Origin: Gammaproteobacteria bacterium
GTDB taxonomy: Bacteria > Pseudomonadota > Gammaproteobacteria > UBA12402
Direction: 5' to 3'
Assembly: GCA_018812595.1 (NCBI GenBank)
Contig: JAHJDF010000005.1
Location: 1 to 43,601, forward strand
DNA length: 43,601 nt
Position 1 is the first letter of the stretch; the number at the start of each line of letters is the position of its first letter. The notes beneath the pieces are model-generated. The model ran no database searches, was not told where the DNA came from, and saw only the letters and a program-made list of their open reading frames with translations. Positions 3,199 to 43,544 of the stretch are shown here, piece after piece. The translations under genes and the position numbers were made by a program.

Positions 3199-3432
3199 AT
3201 GGCCGATGTAAACGATAAAAATGCATTGAACGTTCCAGGGCCTTTCTATGTCGATGAAAACTGCATCAGTTGCGGTATGTGCTGCGACACGGCCAGTGAA
3301 TGTTTCAAAATGGATGACGACACGGGCGTTGCTTATGTCTTCAAGCAACCCAAAACCCCTGAAGAAACCGCCGAATGCCAAGAAGCCAAAGAAAGCTGCC
3401 CAGTAGAGGCGATAGGAGATGATGGTAAATAA
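3199..3432 (+). CDS. Single-cluster 4Fe-4S ferredoxin
   Basis: CISCGMC...CPVEAI in a small acidic protein; AGGAG RBS. Confidence 0.92.
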   Translation: MADVNDKNALNVPGPFYVDENCISCGMCCDTASECFKMDDDTGVAYVFKQPKTPEETAECQEAKESCPVEAIGDDGK

Positions 3433-3442
3433 AAAACCATCT

Positions 3443-3514
3443 TGTCATCCCCTCGAAGGTGTGGATCCAGTTATATATTTATCTTCTGGATCCTTAGCTT
3501 GCGCGGGGATGACA
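3443..3514. repeat. CGTC/TGTC-type REP doublet between convergent ferredoxin and nifJ
   Basis: TGTCATCCCC..GGATCCAG, an AT-rich spacer, then CTGGATCC..GGGGATGACA. Confidence 0.9.
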
Positions 3515-3517
3515 GTT

Positions 3518-6500
3518 TTAGATTAGTTTCTCTATAAATTTCCAACGACGATCGACGTCTTCTTGAGCTTCTCTCAATAACATATTTGCTTCTTCTGGAT
3601 TAATCTTCGACAACATCGAGAAACGAGTCTCGTTCTTCATGTAATCAATCAAAGGAATGGATGGTTGTTTTGAATCTAAAGAAAATGGATTTTTCCCTTC
3701 TTTCTCTAAACGAGGATCGTATCGATACAATGGCCACGTACCGCTGTTCACCGCCAACTTCTGCTGCTCTGCGCCATAACGCAGATTAAATCCATGCGCG
3801 ATGCATTGACTGTACGCAAGAATCAATGATGGCCCCGGATAACTTTCCGCTTCTTTAATCGCTCGAATGGCCTGCGCGGGATTTGCCATCATCGCTATTT
3901 GAGCCACGTATACATACCCGTAAGGAAGCATCATTAACCCTAAATCCTTCTTCGGATTCTTTTTCCCGTGCGCAGCAAACTTCGCAATAGCTGCTCGAGG
4001 TGTTGCTTTGGAAGATTGACCGCCGGTATTGGAATACACCTGCGTATCCATCACGAGCACATTGATGTTCAAGCCAGAAGCTAATACGTGATCTAAACCT
4101 CCAAAACCAATGTCATAGGCCCATCCATCACCGCCCATCAACCAGATGCTGTGAGGAACAAGATAATCGGCCAATACAAGTAATCGACTAGCTGCTGGAT
4201 CATTTAATGACTCAAGTTTTTTCTTCAATTGCGCGACTCGTTTGCGCTGTGCATCGATGTCCTTTCCATTTTCTAAGAGCTCTTTGACCCATTGAGGCTG
4301 TTTCAATTTAGGCTCCAGTTGATGCAACAACTCCACCGCCTGTTCGTGGTGTTTATCCTCTGATATACGGAACCCTAAACCAAACTCCGCATTGTCTTCG
4401 AAGAGAGAGTTTGACCACGCCGGCCCCTTGCCTTCGGCATTTTTCGTCCAAGGTGTTGTGGGTAAATTGCCTCCGTAAATCGAAGAACAACCCGTCGCAT
4501 TAGCAACCACCATATGATCGCCAAACATCTGAGTAACCAATTTAATATAAGGCGTTTCACCACAACCCGCACAAGCACCAGAAAACTCAAACAACGGCTC
4601 AGAGAATTGTGCGGTCTTTACGTTCGTGAGATCCGTTTGCGTGCCTGTGATTTTTTCAAAAAAGCGAAGACTTTCTCTATCTTGTTCAAGATCCAGCGTT
4701 TTTTCCTGCATATTGATCGCCTTCAATTCAGGATTTTGTTTGTTTTTCGCCGGACAATTTTGCACACACAACCCGCAACCGGTGCAATCTTCTACATAAA
4801 CCTGCAATGTATATCTCTGCTTTCCTGTCTTATCTCCTTTCAACGCAGCCGATTTTAAATGCTGAGGAGCGTCTTTTAATTCCTTCTCATCGTATTGCTT
4901 CATACGAATCACACCGTGAGGACAAACAAAATTACACAACCCACATTGAATACACGTTTCAGGATCCCAAACAGGGGCAGTTGTAGACACGTTCCTCTTC
5001 TCCCATTTCGTCGTACCGGACGGGAACGTTCCGTCACAAGGCATAAAGCTCACAGGAATTTCATTGCCTTCATCTCGCATTAATTTTGCTGTGACTTCTT
5101 TCACAAAAGTTGGCGCTTCATCTGTAATTGCCGTCGTAAATTGCAACTTGCTTGTAACGTTCTTAGGAACCTTCACCTTCTTTAAGCGCTTCAATGTTTT
5201 ATCCACAGCCGCAAAGTTTTTACGAACAACTTCCTCACCTTTTTTGCCATATGTTTTTTGGATCGCTTCCTTAATTTTCTCTAACGCTGTTTCCTCCGGA
5301 AGAATCTTTGTAATGGCAAAGAAACACACTTGCATGATTGTGTTGATGTGCACACCAATGCCGCATTCTTTGGCCAACTTATAAGCATCGATCACATAAA
5401 ACTTTAACTGCTTATCAATGATGTGTTTCTGCACGACAGCTGGTAAATGATCCCAAATCTCCTTGGCGTCATAAGGGCTATTTAGTAAGAACGTCGCCTT
5501 CTTTCCTGCGCATTCCAAAAGATTGGTTTGAAACAAGAAATTAAATTGGTGGCACCCGACAAAATTAGCGGAATGAATTAAATAAGTAGAACGAATTGGA
5601 TTTGGGCCAAACCGTAAATGTGAAACTGTGCGCGCTCCTGATTTCTTAGAGTCATAAACAAAATATGCCTGCGTATACAGATCCGTATTCTCACCGATGA
5701 TCTTGATCGAATTCTTGTTCGCACCGACCGTACCGTCTGATCCAAGCCCATAAAACACAGAACGCACGACATCGATGGGTTCAATTTCAAAACTTGAGTC
5801 ATACGCCAGACTTGTGTGCGTCACGTCATCATCAATACCTATCGTGAAATGATTTTTAGGTTCTTTTTTCTTTAGCTCATCGAAAATGCCTTTGACCATT
5901 GCTGGCGTAAATTCTTTCGATGACAAACCGTAACGACCACCAGTCACAACAACCTTTCGCAATTTCTGTTCATTCAAACAAGTGGCCACTTCTTCATACA
6001 ACGGTTCGCCCACTGCCCCCGGTTCTTTAGTACGATCCAAAACGGCCAACGATTTCACGCTCTTCGGTAACATTTCTAAGAAATGTTCTTTCGGGAAAGG
6101 TCTAAATAAACGCACCTGCAAGAATCCAACAGACTTTCCTTTCTTATTTAAGTGCTCGACCGTTTCTTTAACGGTTTCACTGCCAGACCCCATAATGACA
6201 ATGACATGTTTGGCTTTTGGATCACCGAAGTAATCGATCAAGTGATAATTCCTACCTACTTTTTTAGCAAAACGGTCCATCACTTTCTCAAGAATTGAAG
6301 GCAACGCCACATAATAAGGATTCACCGTTTCGCGTCCTTGAAAAAACACGTCTGGATTTTGAGCCGTTCCACGAATCACTGGATGTTCAGAACTTAATGC
6401 GCGTTTGCGATGTTCAAAAATTAATTGTTCATCGATCATCGAACGCATTTGATCGTCCGATAACATCTCAATCTTGTTGATTTCATGGCTCGTTCTGAAC

Positions 6501-7018
6501 CCATCAAAGAAATGAACAAAAGGAACTCGCGACTCTAACGTCGCCGCTTGAGAGATAAGCGCCATGTCATGCGCTTCTTGAACACTGCTGGAACACAGCA
6601 TGGCAAATCCCGTCGAACGAACGGCCATGACATCGGTGTGATCACCAAAAATAGACAATGCTTGTGCCGCAATAGAACGAGCAGCCACATGAAAGACGGT
6701 AGGTGTCAATTCACCTGCGATCTTGTACATGTTCGGGATCATCAACAACAGCCCTTGAGAAGCTGTAAAGGTTGTCGTCAAAGCCCCTGTTTGCAGTGAA
6801 CCGTGCACAGCACCGCTTGCCCCACCTTCACTCTGCATTTCAACCACATGGGGAACCGTGCCCCACAAATTGGGTTGCCCCTCTGCCGAAAAAAGATCGG
6901 CATGTTCGCCCATCGGTGAAGAAGGGGTAATAGGATAAATAACGCACAACTCATTTAGAGGATACGCAACGCGCGCAACCGCTTCATTTCCATCGATAGC
7001 TTTCATGGTGGTGTTCAT
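3518..7018 (-). CDS. nifJ: Pyruvate:ferredoxin (flavodoxin) oxidoreductase, single-chain NifJ type
   Basis: DGNEA, YPITPS, MQSEGGA, two CxxCxxCxxxCP clusters, FEFSGACAGCGE and TPP motif GGDGWAYDIG; AAGGAG RBS before ATG 7018. Confidence 0.97.
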   Translation of the reverse strand: MNTTMKAIDGNEAVARVAYPLNELCVIYPITPSSPMGEHADLFSAEGQPNLWGTVPHVVEMQSEGGASGAVHGSLQTGALTTTFTASQGLLLMIPNMYKIAGELTPTVFHVAARSIAAQALSIFGDHTDVMAVRSTGFAMLCSSSVQEAHDMALISQAATLESRVPFVHFFDGFRTSHEINKIEMLSDDQMRSMIDEQLIFEHRKRALSSEHPVIRGTAQNPDVFFQGRETVNPYYVALPSILEKVMDRFAKKVGRNYHLIDYFGDPKAKHVIVIMGSGSETVKETVEHLNKKGKSVGFLQVRLFRPFPKEHFLEMLPKSVKSLAVLDRTKEPGAVGEPLYEEVATCLNEQKLRKVVVTGGRYGLSSKEFTPAMVKGIFDELKKKEPKNHFTIGIDDDVTHTSLAYDSSFEIEPIDVVRSVFYGLGSDGTVGANKNSIKIIGENTDLYTQAYFVYDSKKSGARTVSHLRFGPNPIRSTYLIHSANFVGCHQFNFLFQTNLLECAGKKATFLLNSPYDAKEIWDHLPAVVQKHIIDKQLKFYVIDAYKLAKECGIGVHINTIMQVCFFAITKILPEETALEKIKEAIQKTYGKKGEEVVRKNFAAVDKTLKRLKKVKVPKNVTSKLQFTTAITDEAPTFVKEVTAKLMRDEGNEIPVSFMPCDGTFPSGTTKWEKRNVSTTAPVWDPETCIQCGLCNFVCPHGVIRMKQYDEKELKDAPQHLKSAALKGDKTGKQRYTLQVYVEDCTGCGLCVQNCPAKNKQNPELKAINMQEKTLDLEQDRESLRFFEKITGTQTDLTNVKTAQFSEPLFEFSGACAGCGETPYIKLVTQMFGDHMVVANATGCSSIYGGNLPTTPWTKNAEGKGPAWSNSLFEDNAEFGLGFRISEDKHHEQAVELLHQLEPKLKQPQWVKELLENGKDIDAQRKRVAQLKKKLESLNDPAASRLLVLADYLVPHSIWLMGGDGWAYDIGFGGLDHVLASGLNINVLVMDTQVYSNTGGQSSKATPRAAIAKFAAHGKKNPKKDLGLMMLPYGYVYVAQIAMMANPAQAIRAIKEAESYPGPSLILAYSQCIAHGFNLRYGAEQQKLAVNSGTWPLYRYDPRLEKEGKNPFSLDSKQPSIPLIDYMKNETRFSMLSKINPEEANMLLREAQEDVDRRWKFIEKLI

Positions 7019-7067
7019 GCTGAATTCGCTCCTTCGGTGACTGAAAAAAGCGCGCAATATAAATGAA

Positions 7068-7337
7068 AACGTCATCTCCGCGAAGGCAAACGTCGTCCCC
7101 GCGAAAGCAAATGTCGTCCCCGCGAAAGCAAATGTCGTCTCCGCGCCATCATCGTCATCCCCGCGAAAGCAAACGTCGTCCCCGCGAAAGCAAACGTCGT
7201 CCCCGCGAAAGCGGGGATCCAGATTAATTTATTTTCTGGATCCCCGCTTTCGCGGGGATGACGATGGGGAGCTTTTGCGGGGATGACGATGGGGAGCTTT
7301 TGCGGGGATGACGATGGGGAGCTGCGAGGAAATGACA
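7068..7337. repeat. REP doublet with tandem arrays on both flanks
   Basis: About 7 copies of a ~21-bp unit AAACGTCGTCCCCGCGAAAGC on the left, a central palindrome at ~7195-7263, and ~3 copies of a 25-bp unit GATGGGGAGCTTTTGCGGGGATGAC on the right. Confidence 0.92.
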
Positions 7338-7346
7338 ATGAAAAAA

Positions 7347-9122: not shown

Positions 9123-9326
9123 GAAAATTCATAGTGTGGGATTAAAAATTGCGTCGGATGGTACGAAAGCAAGATACAAACGGTCAACTAGAAGTTTTTG
9201 GAACTAGAAGTTTTGGGAAATTAGCAATTCATGATTGGTCAAGAATTGTTGAAAGAAAGATCATCACCTTGCTCACAAAACCCTTTTTCAGTAACTTCGC
9301 GCGATCTTCGTAGGAAAGGAATTCAT

Positions 9327-10079: not shown

Positions 10080-10497
10080 AATTTTTACCGATGGCGCTTG
10101 TCGCGGAAACCCAGGTCCTGGTGGATGGGGCGCTGTGCTGCAATACGACCAGCACGAAAAGTATCTTTATGGTGGAGAAAGACTCACCACCAACAACCGC
10201 ATGGAACTCACCGCAGCCATTAAAGGTCTTAAAGCACTCAAACAGCCTTGTCATGTTGTATTAACAACCGATTCGAATTACGTCAAAAATGGAATCACTC
10301 AATGGATTCATCAATGGAAAAAGAACGGATGGAGAACTGCCGCAAAACAACCTGTTAAAAATGATGATTTATGGCGCGAATTAGACACCCTGACAGAACG
10401 CCACGAAATTGAATGGAAATGGATCAAAGGACACGCCGGCCATAGAGAAAACGAACTAGCCGACGAATTGGCGAATCAAGGAATAGATGAATTATAA
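10063..10497 (+). CDS. rnhA: Ribonuclease HI
   Basis: [34 protein letters not shown]. Confidence 0.98.
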
Positions 10498-29993: not shown

Positions 29994-30152
29994 TTGTTCA
30001 CCCTCCCATTTTTCTTTTTCTTGATAAAATTCAGTATAGACAGAATTTATGAATACGCAGAAAAAGTCTGGAAAATCAGTATCGAGTCAAAATGATAAAA
30101 AATTGTTAAAAGTAATGTTGTATTTCAGAGGAGGGCTATATCGTTTCTATCA

Positions 30153-30749
30153 TCATCTAACGGGAGTGTATCTCGCTCTTGCCAAGACCGATTGATATCT
30201 CTCTTTCAAGTTTTGACCTGTTTTCCGGAAAAAGGTCGCTGGGCATTTTGTCAAACATGCGATAGGCGCAACTAATGCATACCCAACGGTATACGCTACT
30301 TTTACGGGGTTACTCTTCCTCTCAATATTCTTTTTTAATCCTTTGCCTTCCAATACAGGAACTTCCATTACCGCCTTCAACCCTGATTTAAGTATTTTTG
30401 GATATGTGCACGGACGACAGGAATCAAGAATGAAATATGTGGCCTTATCTATTCCGTCAGCTATTTCAGAATTTATTTTGTCTTTCAAAGAGGAACGATG
30501 TCGATTCGCATTCACCAAGAGATAGCAGGCCTCAAAACCCACAAATTGAGCAGCAGCAACTAATAATGCAATTGGCAACATCAGCCTTAATCCAAATGCA
30601 AACATAAAACCAATCAGCACAAGACTTGCGGTGTTTACTACAAATACAATCTGACAATCAATCGCCAACATCCTGTGACCCAGCTTACTTTTCGGCAAAA
30701 AAACTTGCATCACATTGCGGATAACAGATTCAACAGCTTCAGATAACAT
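30153..30749 (-). CDS. Hypothetical membrane protein, paralogue of 29370-29993
   Basis: AGGAGG RBS; same motifs as its neighbour. Confidence 0.8.
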   Translation of the reverse strand: MLSEAVESVIRNVMQVFLPKSKLGHRMLAIDCQIVFVVNTASLVLIGFMFAFGLRLMLPIALLVAAAQFVGFEACYLLVNANRHRSSLKDKINSEIADGIDKATYFILDSCRPCTYPKILKSGLKAVMEVPVLEGKGLKKNIERKSNPVKVAYTVGYALVAPIACLTKCPATFFRKTGQNLKERYQSVLARARYTPVR

Positions 30750-30832
30750 TTGAACCTCCTGTTCTTCTCTTTATTCGATGCACTTCAGTATGTATCTATT
30801 TTAGACGTTTGCAGAAATAAGGTTTTATTGCG

Positions 30833-32263
30833 TCATCTTGGCTTCGAACCGTGGGGGTGAAGAACCCCATCTTCTAACCAAGGAAATATAACTTGATCCT
30901 CATTTGGCTCAGATCGCCCTTTAAGGAATTTGGACAAAAGCCACGGACTAATTTTTGGAGAAGTTAAAACGGTGCTTAAATATAAAACAGTCCGTAATAA
31001 CCGATTAGAAGCAAACGGCCTCGATTCATGGATAGATCGATGCATTTTTCCTACTACTTTGTGTATGCCTTTTGAAAGCAATAAAGTTAAGAGGGCATAT
31101 TCCATCATAGAAAGCGTCAGAGAAGAAAAATAAGAATAGCAAGAAAGACACTGAGACCCGAAATCAATCGCACCATGCGCAACCGGTTCTAGGTAATTAA
31201 AAGCCGTGTCTCTTGATACCCCACAATCTTCACAAATATCCCCCATAAGAGAAGAGGACAACGTTTTTTGCGCCCATCGAGTCCCTAATTCAATTGCTAG
31301 ATTTCGAAGCACGGGCATTCCTAACCAACATTGCATTACCCAAAAAAACGCCGCACTGCCTCCGCTAAACGAGAGCTTTAACCCATTGGGCAATTCAGGA
31401 AATTGCAAATCAAGAACTTCTCTGAAGATAGATAAATCTGAAACCTTAGAGGAAAGGGAGATAAATCCTGCACCGAGATTGTTGTACCAACGACCGGAAT
31501 TAGAGATGGCAAATTCTTTTTCATCAATGAATGAAACAAGTTCTTCAGACCGTGCTTTAAGAAAAGACGATAAATCAGTAGACGGTTCTGCTAGGTCTGA
31601 TGATTCAAGCAATTGAAGCAATAGATCCAAAATACGATGAAGCGGCAAATAGGAAAAACGATAGAAAGCCTCCCTATTTGAAAAAAGCTCCTGCACTCGC
31701 CTTGAATACGCAAAGGTTTGTTCTTCTTCAACTCGAAATTGATTCAATCCCCTGAACCAACTCTCCAGAAACACATATCGCTGAATAGCACGAAACAAAT
31801 TGGAGGGAATCGTCCTATGCTTTTGAGAAAAAGTATCGACAGGTTCTTTAAGTGATGTCGTTAATGTTTCCCCCTTTTTTTGAAATGCTTCTCGGGTTCC
31901 TTCATTTGTTTTGTATACCATTAGAAACGCATCATCGTTGAGCCGACTAAAGTCATCCTTATAACGGTTTAGCGCTTTCCGATAATCTTCAAAAGAAATC
32001 GAGCTATCTAGTTCGGAACATTGTTGTAAACAATTTTCTAAAACGGAATACAGTCTATTTATGACCTCTGACATCTCTTGCAATGTCTCTAACTTTATTT
32101 TTTGTATGGTGCCCCAAGCTTTAAGCGCCCTTCTTGTGCTTTCAATGCACTCAAAAGTCTCAGAAGGAAACAACCGAAAAAAAAGCCGCAATTGCTGATA
32201 CAACGCGTTGATACATTGAAATTGAAGATCAAAAACTGAGGGATAAAGCTGTGGATTGGTCAT
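30833..32263 (-). CDS. Hypothetical protein (helical N-half, hydrophobic segments in C-half)
   Basis: 476-aa open frame with no recognised family. Confidence 0.7.
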   Translation of the reverse strand: MTNPQLYPSVFDLQFQCINALYQQLRLFFRLFPSETFECIESTRRALKAWGTIQKIKLETLQEMSEVINRLYSVLENCLQQCSELDSSISFEDYRKALNRYKDDFSRLNDDAFLMVYKTNEGTREAFQKKGETLTTSLKEPVDTFSQKHRTIPSNLFRAIQRYVFLESWFRGLNQFRVEEEQTFAYSRRVQELFSNREAFYRFSYLPLHRILDLLLQLLESSDLAEPSTDLSSFLKARSEELVSFIDEKEFAISNSGRWYNNLGAGFISLSSKVSDLSIFREVLDLQFPELPNGLKLSFSGGSAAFFWVMQCWLGMPVLRNLAIELGTRWAQKTLSSSLMGDICEDCGVSRDTAFNYLEPVAHGAIDFGSQCLSCYSYFSSLTLSMMEYALLTLLLSKGIHKVVGKMHRSIHESRPFASNRLLRTVLYLSTVLTSPKISPWLLSKFLKGRSEPNEDQVIFPWLEDGVLHPHGSKPR

Positions 32264-32727: not shown

Positions 32728-32730
32728 ATC

Positions 32731-32934: not shown

Positions 32935-32937
32935 TTC

Positions 32938-32966: not shown

Positions 32967-33028
32967 TCCTTCACTCTCCATTCCTTGTGCTATCCTTATT
33001 CCATCTTCATCAATAAAAACAAGTTGTT

Positions 33029-33445
33029 ATGAACAATCCAAAATCTTCAATTTCTGAAATAAAGCGCAAAAAAAGCGATCGAACGCGCCCAATTTCTAAA
33101 ATAGAGCACAAGAAACAATTAGAAAAAAGACAAAGCCTACAAATGCTCATCTCAGCCGGTCACGAAGCCTCTAAAGCCGGTGTATTAGGCCAACGAATGC
33201 CAGAAGAACAAACGCCTGAAGGAAATGAAGCGCCCGCAGAAGAAATGTCGCAAATAAAAGAACATCCTTGGTTGAGCCAGCTTCCAGTCGGCTGCAATGA
33301 CCCCGCATTATCTAAGTGGATAAAAAATAACTCTCACTGGAAAACAGTGTTACAACAATATCCGGAACTGGCCCCCCCAGAATTGAGGTTGTTAGCTGAA
33401 GCTAAAAAAGTTCATACCCCTCTCCCAGTGCTCGTACGCTCTTAA
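33029..33445 (+). CDS. Hypothetical hydrophilic protein
   Basis: 138-aa ORF; the basic N-terminus and IKEHPWL motif recall a Legionellales conserved hypothetical (from memory, unverified). Confidence 0.65.
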   Translation: MNNPKSSISEIKRKKSDRTRPISKIEHKKQLEKRQSLQMLISAGHEASKAGVLGQRMPEEQTPEGNEAPAEEMSQIKEHPWLSQLPVGCNDPALSKWIKNNSHWKTVLQQYPELAPPELRLLAEAKKVHTPLPVLVRS

Positions 33446-33492
33446 CACAAGATGTGAAAAACATAGCTCTGCAATTTGCAGCATCGCCATCC

Positions 33493-34470
33493 CTAACGAG
33501 GGATTCTTTTTCTATACCCAGTATTGAGTCTTCTTTGTGCCAACCGTTCTTCCTGTTCTCGTAGCAATTTTTCTGAACTTTCCAAAACCACGTTTACCAA
33601 ATCAGTCGCATTGATGGGTGGGAAGAAAACCCCAACCTCATCAGCCTCTTCATAAATCTTAGTGCTCACAGAATCATTTTCGACTTCAACAGTTACGGTT
33701 ATCCCAAGCTCTTCACTATCAAAAACACTAAGGTAAGGAGACAGTTGCAAAGTGAGCGGCTTATCTTCGATAGAAAGCGATAAATCATCTCTTTCCCCTC
33801 GACTCAAAAAGTCATAAAAACTTTTACGAAACACGTCATCACGCAACAATCTAAATAAACCCTTATATTCTTCTACCCGTTCATCTTCCGTGTTGTCATC
33901 TGGTCGTTGGCCTCCATACACGCTTAAAGCATTTAAACGCACCACTTCTATCTCTTTTAAATTGAGAGAACCAATTCGCTTCAAGCTTTCGGTCAAGAAA
34001 ATACGCAGATGCGCTTGCTGCTCTTCATAATTTTGACCTTCCTCAACTTCTTCTAACTCCGACTCTGTTTCCAAATCCGAATCCTCATCTGTTTCTGATT
34101 CTGTTTCTGATTCTGATTCTGATTCTGAAATCTCACTATCGTCTTCTGCGCTGTCAATCAAACGATCCATGCCCGAGTGAAATAGAGCAATATAACGCTT
34201 CCACTCTTTGCTTACCTGCACCTCAAAATCCAAAACAAACACTAAACACGAAGCAACAGCTCCGGTAAAAAGATGTTCTCCTTTTTGAAACGGAATAACC
34301 TTTAGTTCATCCATGTCCACATCCACTTCGCTTAACAATTTGCACCATGCTGGCAAAGAAACAAATTGTTCTCGCTCATCTTTTATTCTTCTTCTTTTAA
34401 ACATAAGACCCTCTTTTGTTTCTCTAATTAAATCTTCAAAAATATAGTAATGAAAATGCCTTTTTGCCAA
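33493..34470 (-). CDS. Hypothetical acidic protein with an ES/ET low-complexity tract
   Basis: 325-aa ORF; a 6-nt microsatellite at ~34088-34127 encodes SESESESETESETD. Confidence 0.7.
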   Translation of the reverse strand: MAKRHFHYYIFEDLIRETKEGLMFKRRRIKDEREQFVSLPAWCKLLSEVDVDMDELKVIPFQKGEHLFTGAVASCLVFVLDFEVQVSKEWKRYIALFHSGMDRLIDSAEDDSEISESESESETESETDEDSDLETESELEEVEEGQNYEEQQAHLRIFLTESLKRIGSLNLKEIEVVRLNALSVYGGQRPDDNTEDERVEEYKGLFRLLRDDVFRKSFYDFLSRGERDDLSLSIEDKPLTLQLSPYLSVFDSEELGITVTVEVENDSVSTKIYEEADEVGVFFPPINATDLVNVVLESSEKLLREQEERLAQRRLNTGYRKRIPR

Positions 34471-34574
34471 TCACCAACCAACGATAAAAATCTCAGCATT
34501 ACTTTTCACACATTTAAAAATGTGTCGTAAACTTTTCAGGGAATTTTCAACACCACCTTAAAAGGAATTTACAT

Positions 34575-35105: not shown

Positions 35106-35116
35106 AAAATCTATGC

Positions 35117-35143
35117 GGTGGAGACAATAAAAGAGTCTCCACC
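35117..35143. terminator. Hairpin between the secreted ORF and ankH
   Basis: GGTGGAGAC-N9-GTCTCCACC; argues against the GTG start at 35118. Confidence 0.45.
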
Positions 35144-35147
35144 CCTT

Positions 35148-36572
35148 ATGACCAACCATTTCAACCATATGAATCACACACTTTCAGACGCCATCATTTA
35201 CGATTCTGCCGAAGCAGTGCAACAACTCGCAACATCTCCTGATCTCAATAAATTCGATGAATACGGCTACACACCACTGATTCAAACCGCCATTGTGAAC
35301 GACACACAGAAAGCGCAAATCGTTATAAATGCCGGTGCCGACGTAAATGGATTTGATTTAACAGGAAGAACAGCGCTGCATTGGGCTGCTGAAAACAACA
35401 ATCTTGAGCTGTGCAAGTTATTACTCAAACACAAAGCAAACCCCAATGCATATACAAGAGCAGGACAACCCGTCCTCGTGATGCCCTTGCTACGCAACTA
35501 TCGATCGATCACAAAGCTCATTCGATCACGAGAAGGAGACCTCAACTTCGCGCAAGATTTCATTAACACAAAATTACTCGGCCATCGGTTCGAGCTGCTC
35601 GGCCAAGTAGACATCGTTGATAACACGAACACTTTCATCGAAATCAATTACGAAGGTTTCTATTTAGAATTCACCGTAGCGTTGGCATTGCATTCGTTGC
35701 TGAGTTTTCAAAACAACTACGCCGCTCGAAACTTACGCCCGCTTTTCAATCAAATTGGAAAAATCGCAACCGCAATACATATTGCGAGCAAGCTCATCAG
35801 TTACCAAAATTACCTGGTAAACGTAGAACAAAATCAAAGCACGATTCAAAAACTACTTAGCTATCCGTTACGAATGATCCCCGTTGCTTACCAAGGCCAT
35901 GCCATTTCCTTCATGCAATTAGGCCCCTATTTTGCTCGTTGTGATCGCGGCGCATTTGGTAAAAAGCACGGCACAGCGATCATCTACGTCATGAAACACC
36001 CTGAACTTTTTACAGACCAATTGATTCAAAAATTGATGTACACCCGCCAACACTCCGCTTTTATTGAGCGAGGAATTGATGAAACGCTCGATTTAATCCC
36101 TTTGATGACGCTGCCATTGTCTCCACAAACTGCGGGCAATTGTTCCTGGGCAAACACCGAAGGATCCGCTCCGATCATGCTTGCCATGCTCTTGCTTTAC
36201 GAGCTTCACGATCACTCACAACAAGACTTAAAAATCATCGAAAAAGAAGCAATGAATTTTTATGAGAATTGGGTGGAATGGGATAAACGAATTGCGCTCA
36301 TTCACTGTATTGATGCATTCAAGTACGCGAACAAAGCAAGGCGTGCATCGAAAGCCGCTGTGCTCGCGGCAATCTTTTTCCAAAGTTGTGATTACGACGA
36401 TCCAAAAGACAGGGAAAAAGTTAAAAAAATTCTTCCCATCCTAACAAACGCACAATATCGCTACATTCTAAAAAGCTATGTGGATGTCTACTGTAAAGAT
36501 AGTGAATCAGAAGATGCCAAACGATTACTTGGCATCCTGGATGATTTTGGAATTGATGCGTCGCAACTATAA
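35148..36572 (+). CDS. ankH: Dot/Icm effector AnkH (LegA3) homologue: ankyrin repeats + cysteine-protease-like domain
   Basis: DEYGYTPLI, DLTGRTALHWA, KLLGHRFEL-G-VDIV, YEGF-LEFT, GHA, CDRG, GNCSWAN, WVEWDK and YILKSY match AnkH as recalled along its full length. Alternative start at 35169. Confidence 0.88.
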   Translation: MTNHFNHMNHTLSDAIIYDSAEAVQQLATSPDLNKFDEYGYTPLIQTAIVNDTQKAQIVINAGADVNGFDLTGRTALHWAAENNNLELCKLLLKHKANPNAYTRAGQPVLVMPLLRNYRSITKLIRSREGDLNFAQDFINTKLLGHRFELLGQVDIVDNTNTFIEINYEGFYLEFTVALALHSLLSFQNNYAARNLRPLFNQIGKIATAIHIASKLISYQNYLVNVEQNQSTIQKLLSYPLRMIPVAYQGHAISFMQLGPYFARCDRGAFGKKHGTAIIYVMKHPELFTDQLIQKLMYTRQHSAFIERGIDETLDLIPLMTLPLSPQTAGNCSWANTEGSAPIMLAMLLLYELHDHSQQDLKIIEKEAMNFYENWVEWDKRIALIHCIDAFKYANKARRASKAAVLAAIFFQSCDYDDPKDREKVKKILPILTNAQYRYILKSYVDVYCKDSESEDAKRLLGILDDFGIDASQL

Positions 36573-37040: not shown

Positions 37041-37075
37041 GTTCGTTCCTCAATGTTTTTCTATAACTTCGCCAT

Positions 37076-37202
37076 CGTCATTCTTAGCTTCTTACTGAAA
37101 TCCAGATCCGCTCTGTCATTCCCGCGCAGGCGGGAATCCAGAATTAATATATTTTTCCAGATCCACACCGAAGCGGGGATGACGACAGAATCGGGGATGA
37201 CG
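37076..37202. repeat. Composite REP cluster between coaD and topA
   Basis: Degenerate half, doublet, then one 18-bp end duplication (ACAGAATCGGGGATGACG). Confidence 0.88.
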
Positions 37203-37209
37203 ATTCTTA

Positions 37210-39483
37210 TTACGCCTTTTCGACGTAGTCACAATTCTTTTGGGGGCAAACTTTTTCTGCGCCTCGACGTTTCGTTGTTTTCAGCGTCAATAATGGCCAC
37301 CTGCATTTCGGACACACTTCTTCGATCGGCTCATCCCACACAGCGTATTTGCAATCCGGATACCGTGAACAAGAATAAAAAATCTTCCCTCGTTTAGAAC
37401 GCCGTTTAAGCATCGTCCCTTTATGACATTCAGGACAACGCACCCCGGTATCCTCTGGCTTTTGCAGAGATTCAATGTATTTACATTTCGGATACCCGCT
37501 ACAGGCTATAAATTTTCCATATCTTCCTGTGCGAACAATTAAATCGGAACCGCACTGTGGACATTTTCTTCCTTCCACAACCTCCGGCTTCACCTCTTCT
37601 TTGGCATTCTCATCAAGGTTTCTCGTGTAATCACAATCTGGATAACCAGAACACCCCACAAAACGCCCACGACGCCCCAACCGGATCGTTAATTTCTTGC
37701 CACATTTAGGACACTCTTCATCTAATGCTTCTTGTGTCACATCTTTTCGTTGAACAGTTTCTCCGACCTCATCAATTCTCTTTTTAAAAGGCGCCCAAAA
37801 CATTTCAAGCAACGGCAGCCAAACTTTTTCACCGCGAGCAATTGCATCTAAATCGTCTTCTAAGTGCGCCGTAAAATCATAGTCCACGTATTGAGTGAAG
37901 TACTCGGTCAAAAAGCGATTCACCACGCGCCCTAAATCGGTCAAATGAAACCGCTTTTGCTCAAGCGTTGCATACTCTCGGTTAATGAGCGTAGAAATAA
38001 TACTGGAATAAGTGGAAGGGCGACCGATGCCATACTCTTCTAATGCCTTCACCAAACTTGCTTCGGAATAACGCGGCGGCGGTTCTGTAAAATGCTGCTC
38101 ACAAAGAATATCGCGCAAATCCACCACATCGCCTTCGGACAACGGTGGAAGCACTTTTTCATCCGATTCTTGTTTCTTCGTGTCATCTAGGCTTTCTTGA
38201 TAAACCAAAATAAACCCTGGAGTCACAATGGTTGAACCGTTGGCACGAAAATAATTTTTCTGCCCGCAAAGCAAATCAACCGCCACGGTATTCATCGTTG
38301 CATGAATCATCTGGCACGCGAGGGTTCGTTTCCAAATTAAGTTGTACAACTTGAATTGATCGCTCGACAACGCATGACGAATAGATTCTGGCTCTCGCAA
38401 AATTGAAGTTGGTCGGATGGCTTCATGCGCTTCTTGCGCATTTTTCGATTTGCTTCGGTATTTCCGTGCCGTTGCTGGCACATTTTCTTTTCCAAAACGA
38501 TCCGCAATAAACCCACGTATTTCTTGAATTGCCTCATCCGCTAAATTCACAGAATCCGTACGCATGTAGGTAATCAAACCGGCAGAACCTTCACCAATAT
38601 CGATGCCTTCATACAATTGCTGAGCAATACGCATCGTACGTTGCGTGGTAAACCCGAGTTTTCTTGAAGCCTCCTGTTGCAATGTCGATGTAATAAAAGG
38701 CGCCGCAGGATTTCGTTTTCGTTGTTTCTTCTCAACTTTATCAACCGTCAACGTTCCATCGGCTTCTTTTAATAATTTTTTCTTAACATCCGCAGCCTGT
38801 TTCTTATTGACCACCGTAAATTGTTCAACTTTCTTGTCTTGATAAACCGTCAACTTGGCATCAAACACGCTATCTTTTTCACACTGAGCAACAACACTCC
38901 AATATTCTTTGGTTTCGAATTTTTCGATTTCAAGTTCACGCTCAGCAATCAAACGCAACGCAGGGCTTTGCACACGACCGGCCGACAAACCCGCACGAAT
39001 TTTTTTCCAAAGCAATGGGGATAGATTGAACCCAACCAAATAATCTAACGCACGTCGAGCTTGTTGCGCATTCACCAAACTCATATCAATCGCACGAGGA
39101 TTTTTAATAGCTTCTTGAATCGCCGACTTTGTAATTTCATGAAACGCTACTCGAAAAATAGACTTGTTCTTCAAAGCCCCCTTCTCCTGCAGAATCTCAT
39201 AGATATGCCACGCAATAGCCTCCCCTTCGCGATCAGGGTCAGTCGCCAAATACAAAGTATCGACCTTCTTTAAAGCCTTGATGATTTCATCCACATGCTT
39301 TGCATTTTTTTCGATGATTTCGTAATGCATTTTGAAATCATTTTGCGTCTCGACTGCACCTTCTTTCGGCAAAAGGTCTCGAACATGTCCGAAAGAAGCA
39401 AGAACGACGAAATCTTTACCAAGGTATTTTGTAATGGTTTTAGATTTTGCCGGGGATTCAACAATGACTAAATTTTTACTCAT
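37210..39483 (-). CDS. topA: DNA topoisomerase I with C-terminal zinc ribbons
   Basis: IVESPAK, ATDPDREGE, SAGRVQS, ITYMRTDS, QEAHEAIRPT, GIGRPSTY; repeated CPxC ribbons. Confidence 0.98.
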   Translation of the reverse strand: MSKNLVIVESPAKSKTITKYLGKDFVVLASFGHVRDLLPKEGAVETQNDFKMHYEIIEKNAKHVDEIIKALKKVDTLYLATDPDREGEAIAWHIYEILQEKGALKNKSIFRVAFHEITKSAIQEAIKNPRAIDMSLVNAQQARRALDYLVGFNLSPLLWKKIRAGLSAGRVQSPALRLIAERELEIEKFETKEYWSVVAQCEKDSVFDAKLTVYQDKKVEQFTVVNKKQAADVKKKLLKEADGTLTVDKVEKKQRKRNPAAPFITSTLQQEASRKLGFTTQRTMRIAQQLYEGIDIGEGSAGLITYMRTDSVNLADEAIQEIRGFIADRFGKENVPATARKYRSKSKNAQEAHEAIRPTSILREPESIRHALSSDQFKLYNLIWKRTLACQMIHATMNTVAVDLLCGQKNYFRANGSTIVTPGFILVYQESLDDTKKQESDEKVLPPLSEGDVVDLRDILCEQHFTEPPPRYSEASLVKALEEYGIGRPSTYSSIISTLINREYATLEQKRFHLTDLGRVVNRFLTEYFTQYVDYDFTAHLEDDLDAIARGEKVWLPLLEMFWAPFKKRIDEVGETVQRKDVTQEALDEECPKCGKKLTIRLGRRGRFVGCSGYPDCDYTRNLDENAKEEVKPEVVEGRKCPQCGSDLIVRTGRYGKFIACSGYPKCKYIESLQKPEDTGVRCPECHKGTMLKRRSKRGKIFYSCSRYPDCKYAVWDEPIEEVCPKCRWPLLTLKTTKRRGAEKVCPQKNCDYVEKA

Positions 39484-39554
39484 TTTTTACTCATTTTTTA
39501 AATTTAGGAATTTAATGGATGACGTATAGACAATAACCATGACGTGACAAGCAT

Positions 39555-40034
39555 CTAATGTACAACGCTTTTATCTTCGGAAAACAGGATGTCTTCTAAC
39601 AATTGCAGAGATTTACTCATAGAAGGACAGTAATACAACACCATAAAAACAACCACTTTGACGTCTTTAACATCTAAGAACACTTCATCCAACGCCATCA
39701 GACGATCCAGCACAACCTCGCGCATCACGGCATTCAAAACTCCGATTCGCTCTAAGGAAAGTAGATATTCTTGTGCGTCCACACTCAATCGTTTCTGTTC
39801 TTCATCTGTTAATATGCGAAAAGTTCCGCGCGTTACTTTCTTTATTTTTTTAACAAGTCTTAAGAGTTTTTTTAAAGTGCGAAACCACAATAACGTTTCG
39901 TCAACGGATTGCGTTTGAAACCCCGCCTCAATCACTTCTCTTTTCATATCATCAATGGCTTGATCTTCGTAATTGTTTTGTAAAGCATTCGTATCAAAGT
40001 AACTATCAAACAAATACGTCAGTACTTCTATCAT
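39555..40034 (-). CDS. smg: Smg / DUF494 protein
   Basis: MIEVLTYLFD, EAGF, FRILTDEE, REVVLDRLMAL; located upstream of topA. Confidence 0.85.
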   Translation of the reverse strand: MIEVLTYLFDSYFDTNALQNNYEDQAIDDMKREVIEAGFQTQSVDETLLWFRTLKKLLRLVKKIKKVTRGTFRILTDEEQKRLSVDAQEYLLSLERIGVLNAVMREVVLDRLMALDEVFLDVKDVKVVVFMVLYYCPSMSKSLQLLEDILFSEDKSVVH

Positions 40035-40174
40035 CTTGTTTGCTCATGTTGTTCATTTCATTACATGCGATTGTATGACGCAAAATATAGCTCAATGCAA
40101 GTCAGTCCGCTGAGATTCCTCTCTAACAAGTTCATCAATAGGCCAATAACCCCTTTGAAACGATCCATCTCCAT

Positions 40175-42538
40175 CTATAACTCTATACCACTCATCCAAA
40201 TTTGACCGAGGCTGATGCTTCCGTCGGAGGGAGGTAATTGATTGGGTAGAAAAGTACGAATGTTTTTTTGGATTAATAAGCGTGTTAAGTCTTCTGTTAA
40301 AACTTTATTTAAAAAACAGCCTCCGCTCATCACGACAGTTTTAATGCCCGTCTCTTGAGAAGCGCACGACACCCAATCTGCTAATGCAGCTGATAACGTG
40401 CCGTGAAAACATGCAGCGCCCTCTTTTTGATTCATAGGCAACAACTTCAAGAACAAAGGCGTCAGGTCTAGTTCGTTGTTCTCTGTAATACGCCAACCCG
40501 CCCGATCAACAACAGGCGTCAAGACCAAACTTTCTAAGCACATGGCGGCTTGTCCCTCGTATGCCGAAACGGTTTGCACACCTAACAATGCACTTGCTGC
40601 ATCAAACAGACGCCCACAACTGCTTGTTCTTGGGGAATGGATCTCTCGATCCAAAATCTGTAGCACCGAAGACAACGATTGAAATGTATGAAATCGCTGC
40701 TGAATTGCCTCTTGTTTTCCCAACTGGTGCAATACGCTCACGGCCATCCGCCACGGTTCTCGTGCCGCAATATCTCCTCCCGGTTGAGCCAACGTTTTTA
40801 GATGCCCTAGCCGCTGATAGCGCGCTCCTTCTAATAAAAAAAGTTCGCCGCCCCACGATTCGCCTTGTTCGCCGTAGCCATACCCATCCAGTGACAGCCC
40901 CAAGACAGGTTCTTGCAAATGATGTTCTGCCATCACTGCTGCGCAATGTGCGTGATGATGTTGAACTCCGATGGCCGGCACTCCTTGTGCTTGTGCCCAC
41001 TGTGTTGAATAAAAATCGGGGTGCCAATCGTGCGCGATGTATTCAGGTTTCACGTCCAGCAATTTCAACAAATGCTCTAAGGACTCTTGAAAGAATTGGA
41101 TCGTCTCTGCGTTCTCTAGATCGCCGATATATTGCGAAACATAAGCTTCATTCCCACGTACAACACAGAATGTGTTTTTCAAAAGTCCTCCAACCGCTAA
41201 ACCAGGTGGCAAAGAACGCGCTAATTTTATTGCATTAGGGACATACCCTCTGGCACGTCGCACAAACAATGGTTTTCGGTTCACGACATTAACTACGGAA
41301 TCATCCACCCGCGTCAAAATGTCACGATTGTAAGAAACGATCGCATCCGCAATGTTTTCGAGTTCCTTTTCTGCTTTTTGATCATCAATTAATAGCGGCT
41401 GTCCGCTTAAATTTGCGCTGGTTACAACCAAAACAACATCTTGTTTTTCTGCGAACCACAGATCGCCTTTAGGACGATCTAACAAACCATGGAAAAGCAA
41501 ATAATGCAGCGGGGTAGACGGCAACATGACGCCAAAGCTCGACAATCCTTGCGCGATGTCTGGTGCTAATAGCTGTGTTGCTGTTGTTTCTGGATCCCCG
41601 CTTTCGCGGGGATGACGAAGAGCGGCTTCATGGGGATGACGAAGAGCGGCTTCATGGGGATGACGAAGAGCGGCTTCATGGGGATGACGAGAGAACACTT
41701 TTTTAGGCAATAACACGATGGGCCGGCTTCTATCTTGCAATAGCTCCTCTGCTTCAGGAGAAGTTTCAGCAAAAGAATCTAAGCTCGACACATTTAATGT
41801 CATCAATGCAAACGGCTTCGCATCACGCTGTTTCCGTTGTCTTAAACGATGAACTGCATTTTTATTGTGTGCGTCACAAATCAATTGATATCCACCCAAC
41901 CCTTTCACCGCCACGATCTCGCCCGCTTGAATTTTGGAAACGATTTCGTCTATTGGCATGGAAAGTTTTGGACCGCATGCGGGACAAGCAGTTGGTTGCG
42001 CGTGGTACCGACGGTTGAGAGGATCCGAATAATCTTTTTGGCACGATTCACACAAAGGAAAAGTTCGCATAGACGTTTGTGAACGATCGTAAGGAAGGCT
42101 TTGAATGATGGTGAGTCTCGGGCCGCAATTGGTGCAATTTAAAAATGGATAATGGAAAAAGCGGCTTTTGGGATCGAACAACTCCTGTAAACAGTCGTTG
42201 CAAATACAAATGTCCGGAGAAATACACGTTGCAACTTTTTCGCTTTTTTGACTTTGAATAATGGAAAAACCGACCTCGTTTTTCTTTGGTTCAATGTCTT
42301 CTAAAACAATCTCATCAATCACTGCAAGCGGCGGCAAATCCTTTCGAAGTTTTTCAACAAATTGATCGACGCCTTCGCCTTGAATTTCAACAGTAACACC
42401 CGAGCTGTGATTAAAAACAAATCCAGTACATTGGAGTGCAATCGCAATCCGGTAAACACACGGACGAAATCCAACGCCCTGAACACGGCCATTGATGTGC
42501 AACCGTTTTCGCTTTTGAGGAGATTGCTGCGAGATCAT
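40175..42538 (-). CDS. hypF: [NiFe]-hydrogenase maturation carbamoyltransferase HypF, with an in-frame repeat insertion
   Basis: GRVQGVGFRP, CxxC zinc fingers, KGLGG, TSAN, QHHHAH, SSCGRLFDA, DGSISLGQ; ATGA overlap with the hypB stop. Confidence 0.95.
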   Translation of the reverse strand: MISQQSPQKRKRLHINGRVQGVGFRPCVYRIAIALQCTGFVFNHSSGVTVEIQGEGVDQFVEKLRKDLPPLAVIDEIVLEDIEPKKNEVGFSIIQSQKSEKVATCISPDICICNDCLQELFDPKSRFFHYPFLNCTNCGPRLTIIQSLPYDRSQTSMRTFPLCESCQKDYSDPLNRRYHAQPTACPACGPKLSMPIDEIVSKIQAGEIVAVKGLGGYQLICDAHNKNAVHRLRQRKQRDAKPFALMTLNVSSLDSFAETSPEAEELLQDRSRPIVLLPKKVFSRHPHEAALRHPHEAALRHPHEAALRHPRESGDPETTATQLLAPDIAQGLSSFGVMLPSTPLHYLLFHGLLDRPKGDLWFAEKQDVVLVVTSANLSGQPLLIDDQKAEKELENIADAIVSYNRDILTRVDDSVVNVVNRKPLFVRRARGYVPNAIKLARSLPPGLAVGGLLKNTFCVVRGNEAYVSQYIGDLENAETIQFFQESLEHLLKLLDVKPEYIAHDWHPDFYSTQWAQAQGVPAIGVQHHHAHCAAVMAEHHLQEPVLGLSLDGYGYGEQGESWGGELFLLEGARYQRLGHLKTLAQPGGDIAAREPWRMAVSVLHQLGKQEAIQQRFHTFQSLSSVLQILDREIHSPRTSSCGRLFDAASALLGVQTVSAYEGQAAMCLESLVLTPVVDRAGWRITENNELDLTPLFLKLLPMNQKEGAACFHGTLSAALADWVSCASQETGIKTVVMSGGCFLNKVLTEDLTRLLIQKNIRTFLPNQLPPSDGSISLGQIWMSGIEL
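41590..41690. repeat. REP plus three 24-bp tandem units inside hypF
   Basis: CTGGATCCCCGCTTTCGCGGGGATGAC (41590-41616) followed by GAAGAGCGGCTTCATGGGGATGAC x3 (41617-41688). Confidence 0.95.
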
Positions 42539-43209
42539 TTTTGTTGCATTAACCATTGAATCCACGCTTCGAATCCTTCGCCGGTCTTCACGGATAACGG
42601 AAAAATAGTTAAATGAGGATTCACTTGTCGCGCGTATTGCAAACAACAACCGAGATCGAAATCCACATAGGGCAACAAATCGATTTTATTCAGCAACATG
42701 ACGCTGGAAGCATGAAACATATAGGGATATTTCAGAGGTTTATCTTCCCCTTCTGTCACGGATAACATCACGACTTTATGCGCTTCGCCCAAATCGAAAG
42801 AAGCGGGGCAAACGAGATTTCCGACATTTTCAATAAACAAAAAATCTTCGTCGTGAATTTTTAAATCTTCCATCGCATGACCGATACCGTGTGCATCTAA
42901 ATGACATCCTTGTCCTGTGTTGATTTGCTTGACCGGGACTTGCGTACTCTGAATTCGTAATGCGTCTTGATCGGTTTGTTGATCCCCTTCGATCACAGCG
43001 GATCGATAACGATCTTTTAACGCTTCAATGGTTTTGACCAATAGAGAAGTTTTTCCAGAGCCAGGGCTAGAAACAAAATTCAATGCACAAATATTGTATC
43101 GCGTTAAATAGTCACGATTTTTCAAAGCGAATTCATCGTTTTTAGTCATTAATTTTTTTTCTACATCAATGTGTTGATGATCGTCACCACAACCGCAGGT
43201 ATCGCACAT
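42535..43209 (-). CDS. hypB: Hydrogenase nickel-insertion GTPase HypB
   Basis: MCDTCGC, SPGSGKT, CHLDA, ENVGNLVCP, DKPLKYP, NKID. Confidence 0.97.
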   Translation of the reverse strand: MCDTCGCGDDHQHIDVEKKLMTKNDEFALKNRDYLTRYNICALNFVSSPGSGKTSLLVKTIEALKDRYRSAVIEGDQQTDQDALRIQSTQVPVKQINTGQGCHLDAHGIGHAMEDLKIHDEDFLFIENVGNLVCPASFDLGEAHKVVMLSVTEGEDKPLKYPYMFHASSVMLLNKIDLLPYVDFDLGCCLQYARQVNPHLTIFPLSVKTGEGFEAWIQWLMQQK

Positions 43210-43544
43210 TATTCAACCTCCAAAGATTTAATGTTTAATTCTTCACCGCTCAATAATTGAAAATCATGAGACCGACATTCTGGACAAGCATCGTACAGTT
43301 TTTGAATGGAAAAAAGTGTAGCGCACTGATTGCATTTCGCTTTTCCGGGTACATCGATAATCACAAGTTTTGATCCTTCTAATGCTGTGTTTTGAACCAC
43401 CACATCAAAGGAAAACAGGAGCGCTTCTTTTTGCACACCGGCCAATAAACCTAATTCAAGGATAACCGCATGCACCTTTCGATCGCCTTCAAGTGCGTCG
43501 AGCGCAATATCCACAATGTTTCGACACAAAGTCAGTTCATGCAT
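43209..43544 (-). CDS. hypA: Hydrogenase maturation nickel chaperone HypA
   Basis: MHE N-terminus, CNQC..CPEC, GEEL. Confidence 0.96.
   Translation of the reverse strand: MHELTLCRNIVDIALDALEGDRKVHAVILELGLLAGVQKEALLFSFDVVVQNTALEGSKLVIIDVPGKAKCNQCATLFSIQKLYDACPECRSHDFQLLSGEELNIKSLEVE

Follow-up and report, generated by a model that had tools for sequence, protein, structure and literature searches.

A predicted fermentative, Dot/Icm-bearing member of Legionellales and the non-respiring clade to which it belongs

A Legionellales genome without a respiratory chain

The DNA considered here, referred to as the window, is a stretch of 43,601 nucleotides that makes up the whole of one contig (C101; JAHJDF010000005.1) of a 1.47 Mb, 122-contig gammaproteobacterial genome (GCA_018812595.1, here G000), which is scored as 100% complete and 0% contaminated and has a GC content of about 0.42. 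It encodes pyruvate:ferredoxin oxidoreductase (PFOR) and a ferredoxin, acetate kinase (AckA), phosphotransacetylase (Pta), an LbtU-family porin, a homologue of AnkH, and HypA, HypB and HypF, all of which had been named in an earlier note on the window and are confirmed by Pfam and NCBIfam models. The genome probably represents a member of Legionellales with a Dot/Icm system, predicted to be an obligate fermenter, that likely lives in an anaerobic groundwater protist and likely releases acetate, CO2 and H2. The genes for PFOR, AckA and Pta are alone no proof of anaerobiosis, since Escherichia coli has ydbK, ackA and pta; nor are the hyp genes or the type of hydrogenase found here marks of it, since a respiring relative (G009) carries ackA and a hydrogenase of the same type, group 3b. 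The proof of anaerobic life is what the rest of the genome lacks.

Six-frame hidden Markov model (HMM) searches of the genome, in which positive controls were recovered, found no COX1, cytochrome bd, NuoD, pyruvate formate-lyase (PFL), RnfD, or class I or II ribonucleotide reductase (RNR); a search of the same kind found no 2-oxoacid dehydrogenase E2 in any of five genomes. With E. coli proteins as queries, tblastn found no gltA (citrate synthase), acnB, sdhBCD or sucABCD, no cyoA-E, cydAB or nuoA-N orthologue, no mdh, fumA, ldhA, adhE or narGHI, and no ubiB/D/E/J, hemA, tatC, pntAB or fpr, while all eight atp genes were matched in the same search. By the ubi and hemA results the genome shows no synthesis of quinone or heme. 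The queries SdhA, AceE, Lpd, Ndh and FumC gave weak matches, interpreted as NadB, transketolase, proteins resembling CoA-disulfide reductase (CoADR) and adenylosuccinate lyase, the gene matched by sdhA adjoining nadA. A pyruvate dehydrogenase (PDH) complex, suggested by lipA and lipB, was rejected, as no E2 is found in the five genomes, the aceE match is a transketolase and the lpd matches are CoADR-like. The only RNR found is the class III enzyme NrdD (565 bits, cut-off 326) with NrdG. Class III RNRs are O2-sensitive. On the genomic criteria for obligate anaerobes, this genome thus has no terminal oxidase and a class III RNR only; the anoxia-adapted lineage proposed in the earlier note is borne out by the lack of heme-copper and bd oxidases, complex I, the tricarboxylic acid (TCA) cycle and PDH, and no aerobic chain was found.

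The metabolic inventory comes from a Pfam scan of about 990 of the 1,245 open reading frames (ORFs) of at least 90 residues, with an E-value threshold of 1e-18 to 1e-20 beyond the window. It did not extend to the genes of the ribosome and of ATP synthase, to polysaccharide clusters, to ORFs that are short or encode long repeat proteins, or to nine tiny contigs. The genome carries a sugar uptake operon of the N-acetylglucosamine (GlcNAc) type, with a transporter and GlcNAc kinase- and deaminase-like genes, a full pyrophosphate (PPi)-dependent glycolysis (PGI, PPi-PFK, class I aldolase (FBA), TIM, GAPDH, PGK, iPGM, enolase and pyruvate kinase) and PpsA. Also present are an arginine deiminase (ADI) operon with antiporter, carbamate kinase and OTCase; Tdh, Kbl, SHMT, FolD and Fhs; nucleoside phosphorylases and glutamate decarboxylase; F1Fo ATPase and a membrane pyrophosphatase; the mevalonate pathway, Isc, SOD and AhpC; a NicO nickel transporter and hypA-F; two CoADR-like flavoproteins, one with TusA and DsrE domains; and many peptidases, amino-acid permeases and salvage enzymes.

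In the window, the single-chain PFOR is encoded at 3518..7075 on the minus strand (TIGR02176, 1801 bits, cut-off 911); its database form has 1166 residues and starts at 7018, and it is 52% identical to E. coli YdbK. The gene convergent with it, at 3199..3432 on the plus strand, encodes a single-cluster 4Fe-4S ferredoxin of 77 residues (PF13370, Fer4_13, E-value 2.8e-18), which is likely the electron acceptor of PFOR. AckA (12793..13986, plus strand; TIGR00016, 495 bits, cut-off 293) and Pta (14979..16652, plus strand; TIGR00651, 375 bits, cut-off 311; PRK05632, 663 bits, cut-off 418) are separated by dapF, and AckA is 55-62% identical to the main ackA copies of the non-respiring clade described below.

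We propose that ATP would come from substrate-level steps at PGK, pyruvate kinase, AckA, carbamate kinase and perhaps Fhs, and that the F1Fo enzyme, working in reverse, would energise the membrane together with the pyrophosphatase. Glycolysis and PFOR would yield surplus NADH and reduced ferredoxin, and both would leave the cell as H2 through the 3b hydrogenase, aided by the two CoADR-like flavoproteins. Feeding of Fhs by glycine cleavage is unsupported in this genome: GcvP was not found, though GcvH, LipA and LipB are present. These three, without a detected GcvP or 2-oxoacid dehydrogenase, and a UbiA without other ubi genes, are orphans (C82, L154:4502; C117, L147:11122; and C81).

The hydrogenase and the fate of surplus reductant

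The hydrogenase large subunit, sought outside the window, was found on contig C81, in a four-gene NiFe hydrogenase operon with a protease gene (C81:9408-14205), placed among housekeeping genes between groEL/glyQS and lipB/lipA. The operon encodes an Fe-S beta subunit, a FAD/NAD(P) gamma subunit, a small subunit and a large subunit, for which the best NCBIfam models are HydB, HydG, HydD and HydA, respectively. The large subunit scores 261 bits with the HydA model, against 125 with FrhA and 116 with VhuA, and its L1 and L2 Ni-binding cysteines and C-terminal cleavage tail are intact. Judged by these sequence features, the enzyme is of the NAD(P)-linked group 3b type. It has the HydB-G-D-A gene order and the protease of the SHI-type group 3b sulfhydrogenase of Pyrococcus, but its scores are far below the Pyrococcus equivalog cut-offs. 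Legionella pneumophila has a group 3b hydrogenase as well; a literature search on Legionella and group 3b gave nothing relevant.

The hyp genes lie at the end of the window on the minus strand: the carbamoyltransferase HypF (40175..42649; TIGR00143, 772 bits, cut-off 466, matched in two stretches), the nickel GTPase HypB (42535..43209; TIGR00073, 286 bits, cut-off 121) and the nickel chaperone HypA (43209..43544; TIGR00100, 95 bits, cut-off 88). HypF contains an in-frame insertion from the palindromic repeats of the genome near 41590-41660, with three copies of an 8-residue unit, and hypE on C85 has a peptide insertion of the same kind; both frames stay open. The order on C85 is hypC-hypD-hypE-dprA, followed at the contig end by a second, near-identical hypA. 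The hyp genes thus probably flank a dprA-smg-topA locus, the duplicate hypA having broken the contig. HypC is a separate protein of 77 residues.

Two further candidates were set aside as probable contaminants: a second, Mvh- or group 3c-like hydrogenase with MvhD on contig C7 (tetranucleotide z 4.5 and a codon score of 0.018 per residue, amid foreign neighbours), of which no counterpart occurs among the family operons examined, and an ACS/CdhC gene on contig C31 (tetranucleotide z 8.4). FeFe-hydrogenase was found neither in the ORFs covered by the Pfam scan nor by motif, no six-frame HMM search having been made for it.

The earlier note had suggested that a hydrogenase reoxidises the ferredoxin reduced by PFOR. 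This holds in part: a hydrogenase is present, but it is of the NAD(P)-linked 3b type, and neither HMM nor tblastn searches of the genome turned up a transhydrogenase, Rnf or a ferredoxin:NADP reductase. That the 3b enzyme reoxidises ferredoxin is plausible on the sequence evidence; in Pyrococcus furiosus, as far as the consulted part of PMC3200332 tells, only an engineered two-subunit (heterodimer) form of the 3b enzyme took electrons directly from PFOR. Because no lactate, ethanol, malate/fumarate or nitrate sink was found, evolution of H2 by the 3b enzyme appears on balance to be the likeliest outlet for reductant.

The best-surviving alternative, which we regard as unlikely, keeps the same anaerobic intracellular life but has the hydrogenase mainly take up H2 from host hydrogenosomes to make NADPH, with surplus electrons passing to persulfides or trace O2 through the CoADR-like proteins. 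Enzymes of group 3b can oxidise H2, evolve H2 or reduce S0 (PMC6852473, consulted in part), and uptake is proposed in the model for “Candidatus Centrionella anaeramoebae”, a symbiont of an anaerobic amoeba described in the accessible text of an April 2026 preprint (bioRxiv 10.64898/2026.04.11.717937; hereafter the Centrionella preprint). NADPH also needs a source where no transhydrogenase is found, and the two CoADR-like flavoproteins, one with TusA and DsrE, are in place. On the other side, full glycolysis and PFOR make surplus reductant for which no organic or respiratory sink was found, and the hydrogenase shares only 33-35% identity with the clade-type enzyme, the one similar to that of Centrionella.

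Phylogenetic placement, the Dot/Icm system and the host

The tree was built under LG+G4 from a concatenation of 12 rpoBC-region proteins and TopA. The genome falls in a family of 14 genomes that is monophyletic with SH-aLRT support of 100 in a tree of 30 genomes and support of 100/100 in a tree of 22, from which G006 and seven distant genomes were excluded; records in the trees are other than cultured Legionella or Coxiella. The family adjoins records labelled Coxiellaceae or Legionellales, and Suppl. Table 2 of Hugoson 2022 assigns a named record from within it to the Aquicella group. It is very probably the GTDB family UBA12402, which the Centrionella preprint, in the text available, places in the Aquicella group; the order appears to hold this one family, as the steps of kinship go straight from family to class. 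The placement in Legionellales proposed in the earlier note is therefore upheld by the concatenated tree. The 16S rRNA identities within the family are only 80-86%, and the 16S genes at G000:C20:3063-4766 and on G008:C15, about 1,700 nt long, are some 150 nt longer than that of G010.

A Dot/Icm cluster, sought genome-wide, is present on contig C72. Twelve components score above the curated cut-offs: DotA (TIGR04346), DotB, DotC, DotD, DotH, DotI, DotM, DotN, IcmS, IcmV, IcmW and DotU. IcmE, IcmG, IcmQ and IcmF are best matches below the NCBIfam cut-offs, a 788-residue coupling-protein-like gene occupies the IcmO position, and the protein of 1013 residues in the IcmB position has no model match. 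DotH is detected in 9 of the 14 family genomes. Two VirB-type (IVA) secretion clusters lie on contigs C45 and C10. The window encodes a homologue (35118..36572, plus strand) of AnkH (LegA3), a Dot/Icm effector conserved across Legionellales; it matches NF043023 over the full model length with 558 bits, just below the cut-off of 600. As a query it retrieved 36 loci, 35 of them full-length at 37-49% identity and mostly labelled Gammaproteobacteria, Coxiellaceae or Legionellales; in the part of Hugoson et al. 2022 consulted, AnkH is reported in Legionellales sensu stricto and Berkiella.

Dot/Icm and AnkH together would allow the cell to persist within a eukaryote. From these, the genome size and the two described members of the family, the host is probably an anaerobic protist. 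It is a good deal less likely that the organism is an anaerobic fermenter outside protists, free in a biofilm, attached to cells or in a groundwater invertebrate, with Dot/Icm directed at another target. Such a life would suit the retention of glycolysis, type IV pili and a type II secretion system, the two VirB clusters, much c-di-GMP signalling and a Wsp-like chemosensory operon, and two of the sequencing runs in which the DNA occurs are labelled biofilm. It is harder to square with a genome of 1.47 Mb that has many peptidases, permeases and salvage enzymes, Dot/Icm and AnkH, or with the description of Legionellales as host-associated and of the family's two described members as living in amoebae (the accessible text of the Centrionella preprint).

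Loss of respiration in the family

The 14 genomes fall into two sets. In five (G001, G003, G006, G009 and G010), COX1, cytochrome bd, NuoD and class I/II RNR are all present and PFOR is absent; in the other nine (G000, G002, G004, G005, G007, G008, G011, G012 and G013), none of these four markers is found, the PF00346 matches in seven of the nine being of hydrogenase type. The nine non-respirers are 79-100% complete and belong to six genera. PFOR occurs in eight of them, ackA in eight and a NiFe hydrogenase large subunit in all nine, with ADI in four and NrdD in three of the six tested. They form one clade (support 100/100), with the respirers as sister group (91/89), and four outside genomes tested besides G041 all respire. 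The simplest reading is therefore a single old loss of respiration in the ancestor of the nine-genome, six-genus clade. In G002, G004 and G005 (90-96% complete) no RNR of any class was found, possibly because deoxynucleosides are salvaged from the host or because the gene escaped assembly. Among the respirers, G010 has a genome of 8.3 Mb and a congener one of 2.4 Mb.

For PFOR, the 8000 best word-sharing candidates were scored, 120 were listed and 37 were used in a tree. A branch with support of 99 places all 13 Legionellales copies on one side, away from 18 named outsiders. The window PFOR falls outside the main family subclade, and a single clade is not rejected (approximately unbiased test, p 0.48). 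The donor that a PFOR tree had been hoped to reveal does not stand out: among the matches listed, the best named ones outside Legionellales, from many phyla, tie at 62-64% identity. Five family genomes carry a second PFOR.

The hydrogenases of the clade are mixed (loci L251-L260). There are two 3b lineages 33-35% alike, and G007 has both: HydA of the window genome is 69% identical to one G007 copy and 52% identical to that of the respirer G009, but only 33-35% identical to that of the clade-type operon of G002, G005, G007 and G008. Ech-like group 4 enzymes occur in G008 and G011, and Hyf-like ones in G005 and G011. In G005, a HypC-radical SAM/BATS (HydE-like) fusion (L253:8474-9826, contig C3) lies 3' of the 3b operon, followed by a rubrerythrin-like gene, and an ankyrin gene precedes hypA.

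Outside the family, the Coxiella-group genome G041 (GWE2_37_16; loci L054 and L057) has AnkH, PFOR and a group 4-type hydrogenase large subunit; no COX1, bd or NuoD was found in it, the genome being only 73% complete by Hugoson's table. A second, independent origin of anaerobic Legionellales in the Coxiella group is possible.

Integrity of the genome and points of doubt

The chimeric contig considered in the earlier note is not evident. GC is flat along the window (0.40-0.46 in 2-kb windows), and its tetranucleotide distance of 0.074 is typical of large contigs. Depth was compared in three other DNA runs (X2, X5 and X7) over two 20-kb stretches, leaving bases 20001-23601 outside. In X2, whose contigs are near-identical, depth is 9-12 over the LbtU, PFOR, ackA-pta, AnkH and topA genes and 8.7-10.6 over the hyp genes (8.7-12.4 over the named genes overall), and one contig of 9.4 kb spans mltD to pta. 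Depth in X5 and X7 is also even, and contig breaks fall at repeats. As no single contig of these runs connects PFOR with AnkH, the argument against a chimera is one of depth and composition. Several small contigs (C7, C31, C52, C94, C102 and others) are composition outliers that look foreign despite the contamination score of 0%.

At least 0.8 of the sampled words were recovered in each of seven runs. Besides the possible source, these are six runs from five studies, three labelled groundwater, two biofilm and one metagenome, perhaps all from a single site; runs sharing few of the words were left out of this reading of habitat. An RNA run (X12) was rejected as evidence of expression, its contigs being short and patchy.

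That the organism respires as an ordinary facultative aerobe, its respiratory operons having dropped out during assembly or binning, or that a Legionellales contig has been joined to DNA of an anaerobe, is very improbable and already largely refuted: the 122 contigs, some of them contaminant-like, and the ackA and 3b hydrogenase type shared with a respiring relative leave some room for it, but a genome scored as 100% complete lacks every one of about ten separate loci, the four that were tested across the family (COX1, bd, NuoD and class I/II RNR) are absent from its eight clade-mates as well, and depth in the three other runs and tetranucleotide distance are as described above.

Several observations weigh against a fermenting, H2-releasing life inside a protist or against a single loss of respiration. 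A host is implied by Dot/Icm, AnkH and the small genome but has not been observed; DotH is detected in only five of the nine non-respirers. The bin contains some foreign-looking contigs (C7 and C31), the Dot/Icm (C72) and hydrogenase (C81) contigs are tied to the window by binning and composition only, and in 122 contigs single genes, such as that for GcvP, can be missed. The trees use 13 markers under one model, with G007 only 37% filled, and TopA alone drew the respirer G003 among the non-respirers; this position was judged a long-branch effect, and the concatenated trees move G003 out. The orphan UbiA, SOD, AhpC and an O2-binding ODP protein remain. Production of H2 from NADH requires very low H2 pressure, and no protein linking ferredoxin to NAD(P) was found in the genome. 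Lastly, group 3b enzymes are bidirectional and NAD(P)-linked, and the Centrionella authors read theirs as H2-oxidising (the accessible text of the preprint).

Comparison with known systems and significance

The concept of an anaerobic Legionellales symbiont is already in print, from one preprint. A full-text literature search for anaerobic Legionellales with PFOR and hydrogenase gave the Centrionella preprint as its sole match. As far as the accessible text goes, it describes a 1.52 Mb UBA12402 symbiont that has Dot/Icm, PFOR, PFL, ADI and a NiFe hydrogenase and lacks respiration, AckA/Pta and upper glycolysis, and presents it as the first marine anaerobic member of Legionellales to be characterised by its genome. 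Nowhere does the preprint text use the words ‘MAGs’, ‘groundwater’ or ‘freshwater’, and the accessible text shows no survey of anaerobic traits in other family genomes; its figures and supplements may bear on novelty. What is new here is a groundwater member that differs in metabolism, evidence that non-respiring life goes back to the ancestor of a clade of six genera whose sisters respire, and a hint of a second origin in the Coxiella group.

By the accessible text of the preprint, Centrionella shares with our genome a size of about 1.5 Mb, Dot/Icm, the lack of a respiratory chain and TCA cycle, PFOR, an ADI operon with antiporter, F1Fo, membrane pyrophosphatase, the mevalonate pathway, a cobalamin adenosyltransferase and a cytoplasmic NiFe hydrogenase with an FAD/Fe-S gamma subunit; the two are very likely of the same family. 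Centrionella differs in its GC content of 36.4%, PFL, acetate-CoA ligase, glycolysis of the lower part only, HypC-HydE fusion, marine amoeba host and lack of AckA/Pta. The window genome, by contrast, has about 42% GC, AckA/Pta, a complete PPi-dependent glycolysis, no PFL, a separate hypC, a 3b hydrogenase of a different lineage and a groundwater or biofilm setting, and is not Centrionella. The Sym3 16S probe has 7 mismatches to the window genome and proved useless for placing Centrionella, with 4-8 mismatches to all four family genomes that have 16S. The hydrogenase operon of Centrionella, according to the same text, has a HydE-HypC fusion and an ankyrin gene. Since the G005 operon carries a similar HypC fusion and an ankyrin gene, although in another position, Centrionella likely belongs to the nine-genome non-respiring clade, and its ‘group 3c’ enzyme may be the clade-type 3b.

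Anoxychlamydiales are a convergent case in another phylum: the consulted part of Stairs et al. 2020 (PMC7449678) lists PFO, ADI-OTC-CK, ACK and PTA for this host-associated lineage turned anaerobic, but its hydrogenase is a trimeric FeFe enzyme with HydEFG. For an ATP/ADP translocase, a trait of energy parasitism general among chlamydiae, five genomes gave no match in a search in which no positive control was recovered. Respiring Legionellales (the Aquicella and Coxiella groups and the five family members) are alike in Dot/Icm and AnkH, one also having ackA and the same 3b type, whereas PFOR is missing from the five family members, which retain heme-copper oxidase, bd, complex I and class I/II RNR.

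Until the report of one anaerobic symbiont in 2026, Legionellales had been regarded as aerobic parasites. The clade and its respiring sisters form a before-and-after series for the loss of respiration in intracellular bacteria, showing which genes arrived (PFOR, ADI, class III RNR and hydrogenases) and which were retained (Dot/Icm and AnkH). They also predict unknown anaerobic protist hosts in groundwater, for which the full-length 16S gene in the assembly (C20) permits a direct search by fluorescence in situ hybridisation. If the cell does vent H2 from host sugars, this bears on the origin of hydrogen-exchanging endosymbioses. A broader scenario, which we offer only tentatively, is an old, obligately anaerobic six-genus radiation of Dot/Icm symbionts of which Centrionella is the one cultured tip, with one loss of respiration followed by swaps of hydrogenase (two 3b, Ech- and Hyf-like group 4) and PFOR across protists of the anoxic subsurface; the window organism would be a sugar-fermenting, H2-producing intracellular ‘bacterial hydrogenosome’ with an injection system, and the Coxiella group (GWE2_37_16) would have switched independently.

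Other genes of the window and genome

The named genes of the window are dispersed among housekeeping genes over 40 kb, and do not form a single operon or island. An AhpC-type peroxiredoxin for peroxide defence (1137..1742, plus strand; PF00578, PRK15000) is followed by the LbtU-family outer-membrane porin (1705..3150, plus strand; NF033652, 218 bits, cut-off 90), the true start of which is probably about 20 codons further in. Aminopeptidase N (16820..19453, plus strand; TIGR02414, 1270 bits, cut-off 718) may serve peptide supply in the proposed lifestyle. The housekeeping neighbours of the hyp genes, topA and smg, lie at 37210..40034 on the minus strand (Pfam and NCBIfam). Effector-like ORFs occur at 29370-32263, 33029-34470, 19592-20824 and 10492-11823; the effector-like set comprises two similar hydrophobic ORFs, three further ORFs without a family, a secreted-looking DSPc phosphatase and a Fic protein, all putative candidate effectors.

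Elsewhere in the genome, a three-gene unit resembling FAD-dependent glycerol-3-phosphate dehydrogenase (DAO, Pyr_redox_2 and DUF1667) lies on the Dot/Icm contig (C72, L132:14607-17708), and no glycerol kinase was found in the genome. A YgeW carbamoyltransferase, a xanthine-dehydrogenase-like molybdoenzyme, XdhC and a MobA-like gene, on contigs C69, C30, C40 and C41, form a possible route of purine fermentation.

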